A stretch of DNA of 64,000 bases from Trueperaceae bacterium (GCA_965214405.1 OZ243956.1:128001-192000), one strand, 5' to 3'; positions 10,432 through 15,734 are shown, counted from the first letter of the stretch. Notes: a model not told the origin generated them from the sequence alone. Numbers and translations: made by a program.

Positions 10432-11208
10432 TTAGCTCGTTTCCAGGACCTCGAGCGCATCCCCCACCCGGAGCGTTCCCCGCCCCTGGTGAAGGTAGTT
10501 GTGACCGAACCACACCTCGTTACCCACCTTGCGGTAACGCGCGAGCGTCTTTAGAGGCTCCTTGCTCGTCTCCGCCGTCGCCTGGTCTACCGTGACGAGC
10601 GCGCAGCGTACGCAGGGGCCGGTGCTGCAAAAGGTCACGGGGCCGATGCGAAACACTTTCCAGCGGTCCTCGGCAAAGGCGTCGCAGCCGCTGACGACGA
10701 GGTTAGGACGAAAGCGGTTCATGGGAACGGGCGCGTCCAAACGCCCGTTGAGGTCTGCCAGAGACGCCTCGGACACGAGGTGAAAGGGGCTGCCGTCGGC
10801 GAAGTTGAGGAGCGTATCGGGGTGATGATTCATGGGGCGTAGCGACGCGTCGGGCATGTAGACGAGGCGGTAAGAGCCTTTCAAAAAGGTGCTAAACCAG
10901 TCCGTCGCTTCCTCTAAAACTACGGCGGGAACGAGTTCACTCCATACATGGGCCGTAAGCCCCTCGACCTCGAGCGGCAGCTCGAGCGCGACCATGCCGG
11001 GCGCGGTGAGCTTCAAACAGTCCCCCAACGCCACCCCGACCTTGGCGAGCGCCGGGTGGGTGCGCTGCGTGACGAGCATCCCTGCATCGTCCACCACCAT
11101 CCAGCGGCGGTCAAACTGAGGGCCGCGCGTCACGACCTCCATCTCTTTAACGGAGATACCTGAGGCCGATTTGATGGGGTACACGTAAAGTTGACTTAGG
11201 ACCGGCAC
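10432..11208 (-). CDS. MOSC domain protein (YcbX/mARC-like)
   Basis: 'LYVYPIKS', 'DRRWMVVD', 'FADGSP', 'RFRPNLVV' and 'CVRC' motifs. Confidence 0.92.
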   Translation of the reverse strand: MPVLSQLYVYPIKSASGISVKEMEVVTRGPQFDRRWMVVDDAGMLVTQRTHPALAKVGVALGDCLKLTAPGMVALELPLEVEGLTAHVWSELVPAVVLEEATDWFSTFLKGSYRLVYMPDASLRPMNHHPDTLLNFADGSPFHLVSEASLADLNGRLDAPVPMNRFRPNLVVSGCDAFAEDRWKVFRIGPVTFCSTGPCVRCALVTVDQATAETSKEPLKTLARYRKVGNEVWFGHNYLHQGRGTLRVGDALEVLETS

Positions 11209-11248: not shown

Positions 11249-11878
11249 TCAAAGCTGCCGCCCCAGATAAAGGGCGTGCGGATCACCAGAGCCGACCCGC
11301 AGGAGTTCGGTAAAGCCGAGCTTTTTGTAAAAGCCCTCAGCTCGAGTGTTCGTAGAGCTCATCCCCAAATGCACCGCCGAAGAGCCACGTTCGCTCAGAG
11401 TGTCCAGCAGCGTGTGCATGAGCCGCGCGCCCTGCCCCCGGCCCTGGGCACGGGGCAGCAGGTCAATGTGCAGGTGAGACGGGTAAGGACGGAGCGCCGG
11501 GTAAAACGTCGCGTAGCCCGCCTCGAGCGGATGGTGCATGATGTGATAGAGCCGTTCAGTACGGCTCCAGCCCTCCGGGTCGCCCGCGGGGTCGGGAAGG
11601 TCTTGCTGGAGCCTGGGCAACCATTCGCTGAGCAGCGCTTGGTAAAAGGTTTTCGTATCAAACGCGCCCAGGATGTACCCGCAGACGCCCGCCTCGTCCT
11701 CCAACATGAACGCCAATTCAGGCTCGAGGGTCGCGTACGGCCCCGCGTAGAGGTGGCCCAGCGCCTTGGGGTCGTCATACAAGTGCGTGGCGTCCTCGCC
11801 CGAGTCGCCTGTTTTCAAGCAGATATCGTAAACGGCTTCCAAATCTCTGGGTTGATAGGGGCGAAGGGCAAAGCTCAC
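11249..11878 (-). CDS. GNAT acetyltransferase resembling the O-GlcNAcase pseudo-HAT domain (OgpAT-like)
   Basis: 'LRPYQPRDLEAVYDICLKTG', 'FMLEDEAGVCGYILG', 'PSHLHIDLLPRAQGRGQG', 'N.RA..FYKKLGF'; likely start is GTG 11878, not 12127. Confidence 0.85.
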   Translation of the reverse strand: MSFALRPYQPRDLEAVYDICLKTGDSGEDATHLYDDPKALGHLYAGPYATLEPELAFMLEDEAGVCGYILGAFDTKTFYQALLSEWLPRLQQDLPDPAGDPEGWSRTERLYHIMHHPLEAGYATFYPALRPYPSHLHIDLLPRAQGRGQGARLMHTLLDTLSERGSSAVHLGMSSTNTRAEGFYKKLGFTELLRVGSGDPHALYLGRQL

Positions 11879-12119
11879 CCTTCCTCCAGGGGCAAAAGCC
11901 GCCGGAGCCTGGCAACAAAGCCTGCAACGTGAGTTAGCGACGCCCTTTTGGACGTGCGGAAAGGACTGGGCGAAGGGCTCGAGCCCCGCCGCGCCGCATA
12001 GCCCATCATGGTGTTGAGGCCCACGCCTCCATGGAGGAGAGGAGCTCGAGGCACCTTTCAGCCGTCCAGGGTCTGCTGTAAAAGCCTTTGATGACGCCGT
12101 TGAGAGGGGGTGAGGACAT
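11875..12119 (-). pseudogene. Internally deleted, frameshifted GH84 O-GlcNAcase/beta-N-acetylglucosaminidase gene remnant
   Basis: From ATG 12119: MSSPPLNGVIKGFYSRPWTAERCLELLSSMEAW / frameshift / GLNT..., ending ...AGFVARLRRLLPLEEG* with its TGA overlapping the GNAT GTG. Confidence 0.75.
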
Positions 12120-12257
12120 AGCGTCAATATAACAAGACTCGAGGTTATCCAACCTAGATAGCGTTAGGACGCTAGCGCCTAAATGTTCTCTTTAGACGCA
12201 ACGATTTGAAAACACGATTGTGTTTTTGTGAGACGAACGCGCGCAATTCTCGCACAG
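12045..12257. repeat. About 213-bp imperfect direct repeat, copy 1 (GH84 5' end plus upstream region)
   Basis: Aligns by eye to 13114-13329 from CTCGAG through 'ttcagccgtccagggtctgc..aaaagcctt.gatgacgccgttgagagggg' to 'ctcgcacag'. Confidence 0.9.
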
Positions 12258-12370: not shown

Positions 12371-12793
12371 ATGCGGGTGGTGTTCGACATAAACGTGCTG
12401 GTGGCAGGCTTGCGCTCCAAGCGAGGGCTCAGTTATCAGTTGCTCGCCAACCTGACGGCGCTGCCTATCGAACTATGCGTGTCCGTCGTGCTGGTGCTCG
12501 AGTACGAGGCCGTCCTGAAGCGCCCTGACATGGTGCCCCTCACCCACGCACAGATTGATACCTTCCTAGATTTCCTTTGCGCGCACACGCTGCACCCGGC
12601 CATCAACTACCTGTGGCGGCCCTTTTTGGATGACCCTAACGACGACATGCTCCTTGAACTCGCCGCCAACGCAGGCGCCACCATCGTCACTTACAACCTC
12701 AAGGACTTCAGGGGGAGCGAGACCTTAGGCGTCAACGTCATCGACCCCGCCGAATTGGTCCGCACGCTCGTCAAGAAAGGATGGACCCCGTGA
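12371..12793 (+). CDS. PIN-family toxin
   Basis: 'RVVFDINVLVAGLRS', 'LEYEAVL', 'DPNDDMLLELA', 'IVTYNLKDF'. Confidence 0.9.
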   Translation: MRVVFDINVLVAGLRSKRGLSYQLLANLTALPIELCVSVVLVLEYEAVLKRPDMVPLTHAQIDTFLDFLCAHTLHPAINYLWRPFLDDPNDDMLLELAANAGATIVTYNLKDFRGSETLGVNVIDPAELVRTLVKKGWTP

Positions 12794-13059
12794 GCAGTCT
12801 AAACCTACACCTGCCCGACTATCTCCACAACCATATCCGCGAGCTTGCCAAGCGCGAGGGCGTTTCGATCAATCAGCTCATCACCCTGGCGGTGGCCGAG
12901 AAGGTTTCGGCGCTGGACGCGGCGTCCTACTTGCAAGAGAGGGCGAGCCGGGCTGACGCGGACGCCTACCAAGAGGTATTGAGGGCCGTGCCGGATGTCC
13001 CGGCTGACGAACGTGACACCATACCTGAGGATTTACAGGGCTTATTTAGAAAGTTATAA
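12790..13059 (+). CDS. Ribbon-helix-helix antitoxin
   Basis: 'LNLHLPDYLHNHIRELAKREGVSINQLITLAVAEKVSAL'; GTGA overlap with the toxin gene. Confidence 0.85.
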   Translation: MSSLNLHLPDYLHNHIRELAKREGVSINQLITLAVAEKVSALDAASYLQERASRADADAYQEVLRAVPDVPADERDTIPEDLQGLFRKL

Positions 13060-13113
13060 GACTAGCCTTGCAAAACGCCGATGCTGATAAGGGAAATTAT
13101 GACCTGTGGGAGG

Positions 13114-13189
13114 CTCGAGGCGCTGTTCAGCCGTCCAGGGTCTGCCGGTAAAAGCCTTCGATGACGCCGTTGAGAGGGGTCGAGGACAT
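13114..13189 (-). pseudogene. Second GH84 5' fragment, truncated
   Basis: From ATG 13189: MSSTPLNGVIEGFY / one extra C / GRPWTAEQRLE; similarity stops at CTCGAG 13114-13119. Confidence 0.75.
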
Positions 13190-13329
13190 GGTTAGGTCAA
13201 TACACAGGACTCAAGGTTATCCGACCTCAATAAAGTTAGAACGCCAGCTCCTAGTCATTCTCCTTAAACGCAACAGTTTAAAAACACGGTTATGTCTTTG
13301 TGCGGCGAACGCGCGCGTCTCTCGCACAG
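13114..13329. repeat. About 216-bp imperfect direct repeat, copy 2
   Basis: Matches copy 1 at 12045-12257. Confidence 0.9.
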
Positions 13330-13367: not shown

Positions 13368-15734
13368 TCACTCGAATGTGAGCGTCTCCCGCACGGGCAG
13401 CTGCGTCGCTTGTCTGACGGGCCACCAGCACGCGAGCACGGTCAGTGCGGCAGCCAGCAATACCCATAGGCCGACAGCGGTAGGGACAACGACCGTGGGC
13501 ACCTCGACGTGTAACCCGTGCTCGCCGACCAGATACGCCGCCAGGGCGGTGAGCGGCAGGGAGAGGACACCCGCCAGGACCACGCTCACGGTTGCGACTG
13601 ATACGCCCTCGAGCAAGACCACACGCCTTACCGCGCCTCGACTTGCCCCCAGCGCCCGCATAACGCCGATTTCCCTGGTCCGCTCGAGCACGTTCAGGCT
13701 CATGCTCGTCGCCAGCCCGAGCCCGCCGACCAGGAGCGATACGACAGCGATAACGCTCAAAAGGATGAGCAGGATCAGAAAGTGATCGACCATCGAGCTG
13801 CGCAGCACCCTAAGGGTCATCAGAAAGCTTGGGAACCAGCCAGCGCTGATGATCTGCTCTTCTAAGGCGGTTGCGACCCGCGCCTCTTCCCCAGGAACCG
13901 TCCGGACGCGGAGCGCACCCGCGACCTCCTCCTGTCCGAGCAGCACCGTCATGGTTGCAGCGTTGGTATAGAACCCCGGTGGCGACACGTCATCCATCAC
14001 CCCCACGACCTCTACCGGCGTCGCGCGGCCTGCCACCACGAGATTCCGCCGCGCCCCTAGCTCCAGCCCCGGCTCCGCCGCCTGCAGGTTATGGCTCACC
14101 ACCACAGCCCCCTGTTCTTCGGGTTGAGGCCAGCGCCCCTCAGCAACAACGGGGTCAAAGAGTTTTGTGTCAGCGGAAGGGGCCAGCACGCTGTAGCGTC
14201 CTGTGCCGACGAGTTCTCCCGCGTCCTCGAGCCCGACCGTCGCTAGCACGTGGCCCCACGCCTCCGCCTCGACCACGCCGGGCACAGCCCTAGCTCTTTC
14301 CAGGAGCGGCTTGGTCGGGGCGAGCCCGAGGAGCCTAAGGTCGATGTCATCACTACGCGTCGCCAGAGAGGTGTCAACGGCTAGCAGGAGCCCCCGGTAA
14401 ACGTTCGCCGTCGTCATCAACATCGCCCCGCCCAGGGCGAGGGCGGCTAGGGTCAGGCCGGTCCGCCAAGGGCGGCGCAGGCTGTTGCGGAAGGCTAAGG
14501 TGAGGGTGCGGTCAGCGGGGATCAGGGAGAAGGACCGGACCCACGCTCGTCCCATATAAGGTCGTAGTCCGCTGTCCTGGACTGCTTCTCGCACGCTCCG
14601 CCGCGCTGCGCGGATCACCGGACCCGCCGCCGCAAACAGGGGCCAGCCGAGCCCGACGAGGGCGACCACGAGGAAAACCCAGGCGGGCACCGCGAAGCTG
14701 CTGACCCCTAAGTTGAGCTGCCCGGCGGCGAAGCCCGCAAAGGCGCGGGCGAGGAGTGCGCCAAGAGGCAGCCCCACGGCTACCGCGGTGGCGGCGATAA
14801 GGAAGACGAAGGCGAAGTAAAGGGCTACGATCTGCCCCGAGGCCGCCCCCACCGCTTTCATGACCCCGACCTGCCGTACCTGCCGGGCGAGCGTGCCCGC
14901 CATCAGGTTGGCGACCAGGGTGCCGCTAAAGACGAGCGTGGCCGCGCTGAAAAGCTGTAAGAGCAGGATCAACGTCGCCATGTGGTCGGCGTGGGGGTGT
15001 TCTCGCACCGGCACCTCGACCCGCCGGACCTCCCGACCTTGTTCGGTCAGCCAAGCCGTCAGCGTCGCCGCGAGGCGGGTGGCTTCCTCCCGGCCGCTCC
15101 CCTCGGGCAAGAGGACGCGCAGTTCGTCGAGCTGCGGCCCGGTGCCGAGCCGGGCGAGCGTTTCGGGCGTGACATAGATATAGCCCACGTTGTCCTGCCA
15201 ACCCGGAGCCACGCCGGGATCGTGGACGACGCCACTGATCTGCAGCTCGGTGACATCACCCCCCGGCACCCGCAACCGTAACGCCTTGCCGACGTCAACG
15301 TTAAGAACGGGAAGAGCCGAACGCTCCGCCAGGGCGCTCCCCGTCTCAGGAGGCCAAGCGCCGCGCTCAGACCGGAAGGTCGACACGCGTAAGTTGCCGA
15401 AGTCCGGCACGACGAAGACGAGCAGGGTGCGCCAGTCGCCCGGTGCCACCTCCGCGCGAGCCCGGACGACGCGGCGCGCCTCCGCCGCTTCTACGCCAGG
15501 TTGCTCCTCTACACGCGCTGCCAGAGTTTGGTCCGCCGACTCGAGCCACAGCACGATACTCGCTGGCTTTCCGCTCAGGAAGCTCGTTCCGATCTCGCGG
15601 TCGAGGACGACCTGCGCCGAGACCGCGGCCATGAGCGCGGCGGTGCTGACAGCAATAGCGAGGGCGACCAGAAGGGCGCGGACGGGGTTTTCCCGCACGT
15701 CACCCCAGACCTTGCGCAGCCGGGGCGACATCAC
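13368..15734 (-). CDS. MacB/FtsX-like ABC transporter permease (duplicated domain)
   Basis: Two FtsX repeats, 'RQVGVMKAVGA' and 'ERTREIGVMRALGAS'. Confidence 0.9.
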   Translation of the reverse strand: MMSPRLRKVWGDVRENPVRALLVALAIAVSTAALMAAVSAQVVLDREIGTSFLSGKPASIVLWLESADQTLAARVEEQPGVEAAEARRVVRARAEVAPGDWRTLLVFVVPDFGNLRVSTFRSERGAWPPETGSALAERSALPVLNVDVGKALRLRVPGGDVTELQISGVVHDPGVAPGWQDNVGYIYVTPETLARLGTGPQLDELRVLLPEGSGREEATRLAATLTAWLTEQGREVRRVEVPVREHPHADHMATLILLLQLFSAATLVFSGTLVANLMAGTLARQVRQVGVMKAVGAASGQIVALYFAFVFLIAATAVAVGLPLGALLARAFAGFAAGQLNLGVSSFAVPAWVFLVVALVGLGWPLFAAAGPVIRAARRSVREAVQDSGLRPYMGRAWVRSFSLIPADRTLTLAFRNSLRRPWRTGLTLAALALGGAMLMTTANVYRGLLLAVDTSLATRSDDIDLRLLGLAPTKPLLERARAVPGVVEAEAWGHVLATVGLEDAGELVGTGRYSVLAPSADTKLFDPVVAEGRWPQPEEQGAVVVSHNLQAAEPGLELGARRNLVVAGRATPVEVVGVMDDVSPPGFYTNAATMTVLLGQEEVAGALRVRTVPGEEARVATALEEQIISAGWFPSFLMTLRVLRSSMVDHFLILLILLSVIAVVSLLVGGLGLATSMSLNVLERTREIGVMRALGASRGAVRRVVLLEGVSVATVSVVLAGVLSLPLTALAAYLVGEHGLHVEVPTVVVPTAVGLWVLLAAALTVLACWWPVRQATQLPVRETLTFE

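Follow-up and report, generated by a model that had tools for sequence, protein, structure and literature searches.

The window, by which we mean the whole stretch of 64,000 nucleotides analyzed here from a Trueperaceae bacterium (GCA_965214405.1 OZ243956.1:128001-192000), contains on its minus strand an intact gene for an OGA-type GNAT acetyltransferase. The start of this gene overlaps the end of a GH84 remnant, and a MOSC-domain gene lies downstream. The genome of the window is called G000 below, and its main counterpart in comparisons, a genome of the same genus, is called G001. These three genes are represented by the following features.

11249..11878, minus strand: intact OGA-type GNAT acetyltransferase of 209 amino acids, with a GTG start and a QGRGQG acetyl-CoA loop (PDB matches, Pfam, dN/dS, and conserved columns)
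11875..12009, minus strand: C-terminal fragment of GH84 (MMGYAARRG...RLRRLLPLEEG, then stop), the end of the stalk region (tblastn); its TGA overlaps the GNAT start
12021..12119, minus strand: N-terminal fragment of GH84, codons 1–33 (MSSPPLNGVIKGFYSRPW...MEAW) (tblastn and a weak match to Pfam NAGidase); its frame continues to a stop at 12006-12008
10432..11208, minus strand: MOSC-domain gene, 40 nt downstream of the GNAT gene (Pfam MOSC 6.2e-27, MOSC_N 2e-26), in the same order in G001

An open reading frame of 292 amino acids spans 11249..12127, and its Pfam GNAT domain is confined to residues 203–275, within the last 90 residues. As judged from alignment, this frame is a mechanical over-extension: the PDB homologues of the acetyltransferase and the proteins of 17 relatives align starting at the GTG at 11878. 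The 292-amino acid ORF is thus mis-called as an annotation; the gene encodes 209 amino acids, and the 245 nt upstream belong to a GH84 pseudogene. An earlier note on this DNA, made from the sequence, had described a 245-nt remnant hidden beneath the over-extended frame, and both the remnant and the strings quoted for it are present on the minus strand, from 12119 to 11875. The remnant is read in two frames. Frame A begins with the ATG at 12119, proceeds through MSSPPLNGVIKGFYSRPWTAERCLELLSSMEAW and then ASTP, and stops at 12006-12008 (minus strand). Frame B, which is one base off frame A, reads GLNTMMGYAARRG...AGFVARLRRLLPLEEG and ends in a TGA at 11877-11875 (minus strand); this TGA overlaps the GNAT start codon (GTG, 11878-11876), as the earlier note had also stated.

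The two pieces had been assigned to the N- and C-termini of a GH84 enzyme, and a tblastn search with the GH84 protein of G001 bears this out, with agreement far above chance. Residues 2–38 of that protein match window positions 12131-12021 (78% identity, E 8e-14, frame -3), and residues 400–440 match positions 12003-11881 (61% identity, E 4e-8, frame -2), with no match in the window between the two. The C-terminal motif of the remnant also aligns with human OGA, with ...RLRRLLPLEE of the remnant corresponding to ...FQRLLPID preceding the human pHAT domain. The N-terminal piece resembles Pfam NAGidase (PF07555) weakly, covering profile positions 2–25 of 295 (14.2 bits, E 0.028), and the search of the whole genome gave 10.9 bits; both scores are under the curated cut-off of 25 bits. 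No further PF07555 match was found in this genome, a 4.5-Mb single contig that is 96% complete. The catalytic Asp-Asp pair of GH84 enzymes sits in a (β/α)8 barrel. The remnant has no such pair, the FDDI region falling within 1059 nt that are missing from the window. Descent from a GH84 gene is evident from the two tblastn matches to the syntenic gene of G001, and by this homology of its remaining pieces the feature is a GH84 pseudogene and not a GH84 enzyme.

An intact counterpart and the map of the deletion

G001 has the same gene order as the window, namely MOSC, GNAT, and GH84, followed by PIN/RHH genes on the other strand. Its GH84 gene is intact and encodes 441 amino acids (436 counted from the ATG). 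The protein scores 296 bits against PF07555 and matches human OGA at 1.3e-99 and OgOGA (2XSA) at 6.1e-94, the latter over residues 6–426 with FDDI aligned. Its ILFDDI segment aligns with LLFDDI of human OGA, and 'GLVAKLRRLLPLE' from its C-terminus aligns with human OGA 'GLAGEFQRLLPID', in keeping with the motif that the earlier note had placed before the human pseudo-HAT domain. On these alignments the G001 gene is a genuine OGA-type GH84. Five further relatives have an intact GH84, 36–52% identical to that of G001, and the window therefore represents the derived, deleted state. The two-gene ancestral locus that had been postulated thus has an intact example in G001, with the same neighbors.

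The deletion was mapped from blastn breakpoints and base-level alignment; a global alignment with free gap extension was discarded, as it scattered the remnant over the G001 gene. In blastn, window positions 12900-12010 correspond to positions 3184-2287 of the G001 locus (L003) with 88.8% identity, and positions 12004-10757 correspond to L003 1216-1 with 79.9% identity, leaving ~1.07 kb of G001 unmatched. Two lesions are placed as follows.

12009..12010, minus strand: junction of the large internal deletion (blastn breakpoints and base-level alignment)
12020..12022, minus strand: run of GGG, which is GGGG in G001, a loss of 1 nt (pairwise DNA alignment)

The segment missing at the junction is L003 2286..1228, which amounts to 1059 nt or exactly 353 codons, in frame. 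No microhomology was seen at the junction in the alignment with G001. Another 6 nt of the G001 sequence are missing just past the junction, and the remnant contains a +4/-4 pair of indels relative to G001. The split of the remnant over two frames results from the one G gone from the GGGG run. The net loss relative to G001 is 1066 nt (1059 + 6 + 1), close to the 1 kb of hydrolase sequence that had been estimated.

Upstream of the remnant, a toxin-antitoxin-like gene pair lies between the two copies of a repeat.

12371..13059, plus strand: PIN (12371-12793) and ribbon-helix-helix (RHH, 12781-13059) toxin-antitoxin-like pair (Pfam PIN_3 3.1e-14; RHH-type matches weaker and mostly below cut-offs)
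13113..13329, minus strand: second, older copy of the GH84 5' end and its upstream region, with an ATG at 13189 and ~25 codons (repeat search, tblastn match at 13189-13114, and four-way alignment with G001)

The repeat is direct, ~215 nt in length (12044-12257 versus 13113-13329), and 79–93% identical over three ungapped segments. It contains the promoter region and the first ~25 codons of GH84, and also occurs in G001, at L003 3389-3492. The second copies of G000 and G001 share private changes, and the duplication of the GH84 5' end therefore predates both the split of the two lineages and the large deletion. The layout might reflect a single-crossover (Campbell-type) insertion of the toxin-antitoxin module, although this is a guess. 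The region of the PIN/RHH pair is 88.8% identical in DNA between G000 and G001 (dS 0.22–0.30), and the GNAT/MOSC side is less similar (79.9%, dS 0.46–0.49). Synteny ends past the second copy; the 18 kb of G001 compared contain nothing equivalent to the gene for an FtsX-type permease that follows in the window (13368-15734). The spacing of the repeats (~1070 nt) is near the net loss of 1066 nt, and recombination between them was considered as the origin of the deletion. Two observations led us to reject it: it is the PIN/RHH pair, and not the deleted segment, that lies between the repeats, and no microhomology was seen at the junction.

Putative signals for expression of the acetyltransferase

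The surviving ends of the GH84 gene contain two putative expression signals.

12126..12131, minus strand: TATATT, a -10-like box 6 nt (GACGCT) upstream of the remnant ATG and a putative leaderless promoter (sequence, alignment, and genome-wide spacing)
11882..11887, minus strand: GGAGGA, a Shine-Dalgarno-like sequence 3 nt before the GNAT GTG (sequence; conserved in G001)

The promoter region occurs in four aligned copies in G000 and G001 together, and 'TATATTGAC' is invariant in three of these; copy 2 of G000 has TGTATT. Throughout this genome, the pattern TANNNT before the first start codons of long ORFs peaks at a gap of 6 nt (267/4860, 5.5%), which is an approximately tenfold enrichment over the background of 0.53% per position; gaps of 5–7 nt account for 542 of the 4860 long ORFs. 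The gap between TATATT and the remnant ATG is the commonest leaderless spacing in the genome. The enrichment suggests that leaderless mRNAs are common in this organism. The -10-only spacing resembles that of the leaderless promoters of Deinococcus deserti, in which, according to passages of the study describing them, 47% of mRNAs have the initiation codon at their very 5' end, preceded immediately by a -10 box and with no conserved -35 element (PMC4007540).

There is no good -35 hexamer ahead of TATATT, and a simple scan for sigma-70 promoters and terminators found neither on the minus strand between 10300 and 13500. We gave this negative scan no weight, since leaderless promoters of the -10-only kind appear to be in use in this organism. 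Transcription probably still starts at or near 12119 from TATATT. The transcript may yield a nonsense product of 37 residues that ends 128 nt ahead of the GNAT gene, which would itself be translated from its own GGAGGA-GTG ribosome site. The MOSC gene is possibly co-transcribed with the GNAT gene.

The acetyltransferase, its relatives, and its setting

The acetyltransferase matches Pfam Acetyltransf_1 at 3.7e-10. Its best match in the PDB is SsAT of Streptomyces sviceus (4BMH; 7.6e-46, query residues 3–207 versus 58–255), and OgpAT of Oceanicola is matched almost as well (3ZJ0; 1.6e-45, query residues 17–195). The C-terminal domain of Trichoplax OGA is matched at 7e-22 and residues 715–916 of human OGA at 5.9e-21, versus 1e-5 or worse for ordinary GNATs. 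The alignments to 4BMH and 3ZJ0 are continuous through residues 70–130, and the protein thus has the family-specific insertion. It also has the P-loop pattern Q/R-x-x-G-x-G/A, with QGRGQG aligned to QGRGYG of SsAT and QGRGVG of OgpAT. Q145, G148, and G150 are invariant among 18 homologues, and at columns conserved at 90% or more among these 18 the protein has the consensus residue throughout (30/30 invariant and 10/10 near-invariant columns). No family specific to GNATs of this type was found in NCBIfam. The earlier note had expected the protein to group with OGA-type acetyltransferases and to retain its acetyl-CoA motif, and in both respects it was correct. By these comparisons the protein is nearer to the bacterial enzymes that bind acetyl-CoA than it is to the pseudo-HAT of eukaryotes.

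The earlier note had also proposed dN/dS as a check on the acetyltransferase. Compared with G001, the ratio is 0.26 for the GNAT gene (at dS 0.49) and 0.12–0.18 for neighboring genes, versus 0.76 for the N-terminal piece of the remnant (33 codons only) and 0.65 for the C-terminal piece (42 codons only); as pairwise values these span both lineages, the period after the deletion is not separable in them, and the constraint on GNAT would say little if the deletion were very recent. The only indel between the GNAT gene and the G001 copy is one of 12 nt, in frame, and there is no stop codon. In a maximum-likelihood tree the GNATs of G000 and G001 are sisters (100/99 support), and the near equality of their branches (0.15 versus 0.13) indicates no acceleration after the loss of GH84.

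Among 40 relatives, GH84 occurs in six, all six of which have a close GNAT homologue. The GNAT gene lies immediately downstream of GH84 in four of the six (G001, G015, G019, and G024), and in the other two (G002 and G006) the two genes are on different contigs. A further 14 relatives have a close GNAT homologue (E <= 1e-48) and no GH84 match, including one genome (G004) that is 67% complete. Relatives with a close GNAT homologue and no GH84 match therefore number 14 of 20, a distribution that fits the hydrolase-independent function suggested in the earlier note.

Among public loci, the best 80 found with a GNAT alignment were considered, of which 78 were assessable and two were not. A full GH84 lies directly upstream on the same strand in 38 of these best 80, and in two more (L048 and L068) the contig ends within GH84 and leaves its C-terminus, so that GH84 and GNAT are paired in 40 of the 78 assessable loci and the GNAT is without an adjacent GH84 in 38 of 78. 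Within this set, paired loci come mostly from Verrucomicrobiota and Acidobacteriota, with some from Trueperaceae, and lone GNAT loci include those of Deinococcus, Trueperaceae, and Actinomycetota. In the window, only a vestige persists of the arrangement of a GNAT gene directly 3' of GH84 on the same strand, although the TGA/GTG overlap is still present. A search at E <= 0.05 of 57 loci that lack an intact GH84, including the two with the cut C-terminus, revealed no further GH84 remnant. A candidate in locus L039 (25% identity, E 0.031) was rejected, as it looks like chance.

The neighbors of the paired genes bear on their possible role. In G015 (locus L013), GH84 and GNAT are clustered with genes for a SIS_2-domain protein and a BadF/BadG-type ATPase, and in G019 (locus L023) with SIS_2; these genomes represent two other genera of the same family. 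The two clusters suggest an amino-sugar context for the intact locus, as read from gene content. An open frame of 498 amino acids in G019 raised the possibility of a GNAT-SIS fusion, which was rejected because the frames resolve into three separate genes. In other genera the neighbors of GNAT are unrelated. An example is genus g28 (L020, L025, and L027), which belongs to another family of the same order and has a conserved trio of MerR, GNAT, and GGACT (gamma-glutamyl cyclotransferase-like) genes, with no GH84. No GT41 OGT (PF13844) was found in G000, G001, G015, G019, or G024, and a eukaryotic-type O-GlcNAc cycle is thus not indicated in these five genomes.

The arrangement is similar to that in Oceanicola granulosus, which the earlier note had described as having the hydrolase and the HAT-like protein in separate neighboring genes. 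This agrees with the account given in passages of Rao et al. (2013, PMC3814719), by which OgpAT is encoded immediately downstream of OgOGA, in the order of the human domains. As in O. granulosus, the window has a GH84 gene followed by a separate gene for an OGA-type GNAT, in human OGA domain order. Unlike in O. granulosus, just 245 nt of GH84 remain in the window, divided between two frames, and only the acetyltransferase half is predicted to be functional. The hosts differ as well, that of the window being a member of the Deinococcota that resembles Trueperaceae in its nearest named loci, and O. granulosus an alphaproteobacterium. The acetyltransferase resembles SsAT in having the long insertion and the QGRG-x-G acetyl-CoA loop aligned. 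According to passages of He et al. (2014, PMC3919268), SsAT binds acetyl-CoA and has an acceptor pocket suggestive of a small polar molecule. With the pseudo-HAT of human and metazoan OGA (MGEA5), the window protein shares a homologous fold and the same order relative to GH84, although the bacterial genes are separate and those of human OGA are fused. Passages of three papers describe the eukaryotic pseudo-HAT as having no P-loop and not binding acetyl-CoA (PMC3814719; PMC3919268; PMC12494797), unlike the window protein, which keeps QGRGQG. We found no paper in the literature on GH84 with acetyltransferase and pseudogene together. Our best guess is that the protein N-acetylates a small molecule, possibly an amino sugar, and that it can work without the hydrolase.

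Decay of a split-OGA locus

We consider it very probable that the locus is a decayed split-OGA operon, in which GH84 is dead, the GNAT is intact and hydrolase-independent, and the remnant serves as a leader. An artefact of assembly or sequencing would instead leave GH84 intact in the organism, or would at least make the frameshift at the G-run a sequencing error, homopolymer runs being prone to error. Sequencing runs X1 and X2 both contain the stretch and are probably the source of the assembly; two further runs from the same study or with the same species label (X4 and X5) have next to no cover of it. One X1 contig departs from the window at 12020, where it has a GGGG run and continues, by hand translation, as ...GLNTYLYAPK, the intact form as in G001. 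A relative carrying the intact gene thus co-occurs in that sample, and such related sequence in the runs might seem to favor an artefact. However, a contig of 340 nt from X2 (depth 22.6) covers 11780-12119 without any difference and bridges both the junction and the G-run, a result that shows consistency but does not count as independent proof, since the runs and the assembly probably share one sample. In X1 the dominant depth is ~100, and the genome is a single contig. The many substitutions relative to G001 in the flanks of the remnant are not those of a chimera of G001-like reads, and the deletion of 353 codons removes the catalytic domain even without the frameshift. We give an artefact almost no credence.

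Two biological alternatives concern what the remnant and the GNAT gene now do. The remnant might be useful in its own right, encoding a small leaderless peptide (37 amino acids, MSSPP...EAWASTP) or forming an RNA leader that regulates GNAT expression. Its ATG is at the modal leaderless distance from the -10 box, so the short frame is probably translated, and the old gene has been retained at its 5' end as well as at its 3' end. The peptide, however, consists of the first 33 codons of GH84 plus four out-of-frame codons, and within EGFYGRPW it carries K in place of E and S in place of G, both at sites where the other GH84 sequences seen are conserved. Its frame has the dN/dS of 0.76 given above, its stop 128 nt before the GNAT start leaves no translational coupling, and the 57 other GNAT loci searched that have no intact GH84 contain no comparable remnant. 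A useful peptide or regulatory leader is thus very unlikely. The other alternative is that the GNAT gene is itself being lost, the deletion being recent, the operon vanishing piecewise, and the GNAT intact for lack of time. The inability of pairwise dN/dS to isolate the period after the deletion leaves room for such decay, as does a GNAT value somewhat above that of the neighbors. Against it, the remnant has accumulated at least four further indels relative to G001 and has dN/dS values that suggest a long neutral period, whereas the GNAT gene, 2.5 times longer, has over the same divergence acquired one in-frame indel and zero stops. Its branch length equals that of the G001 copy, every conserved column is kept, and many relatives retain the GNAT without any GH84. 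We regard ongoing loss of the GNAT as unlikely.

Under the preferred reading of a decayed operon with a working acetyltransferase, the ancestor would have had a bacterial two-gene split-OGA operon, consisting of a GH84 β-N-acetylglucosaminidase followed by an OGA-type GNAT. After the split from the G001 lineage, an internal deletion took 353 codons of GH84, including the whole catalytic barrel and its Asp-Asp pair. This left the hydrolase dead, with the promoter-proximal 100 nt and the last 135 nt of the gene as survivors. With these ends the putative leaderless -10 box and, for the GNAT gene, a ribosome-binding site have been retained, and the remnant is therefore most likely only a transcribed 5' leader for GNAT and perhaps MOSC. 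Selection for GNAT expression would explain which parts of GH84 survived. The GNAT itself would be a still working acetyl-CoA-dependent acetyltransferase, with a role that does not need the hydrolase. Its constraint after loss of the hydrolase, together with its occurrence alone in about half of the examined loci, argues for a hydrolase-independent function. It is rather doubtful that selection has preserved the GH84 ends solely for the expression signals that they give to GNAT and that the role of GNAT is fully independent of GlcNAc hydrolysis.

The pairing of GH84 and then GNAT has been known since 2013 and is widespread, and the present case is one of ordinary gene decay in a known locus. 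It also shows the halves of a split OGA naturally uncoupled, which makes it a modest pointer for OGA evolution, and it provides two genomes for a natural comparison. If the GH84 ends have indeed been preserved solely as expression signals, with GNAT fully independent of GlcNAc hydrolysis, G000, which has lost the hydrolase, would stand to G001, which retains it, as a natural knock-out to its wild type. The two could then help to identify the acceptor of this GNAT family and, through it, what the domain did ancestrally before it became the pseudo-HAT of human OGA.
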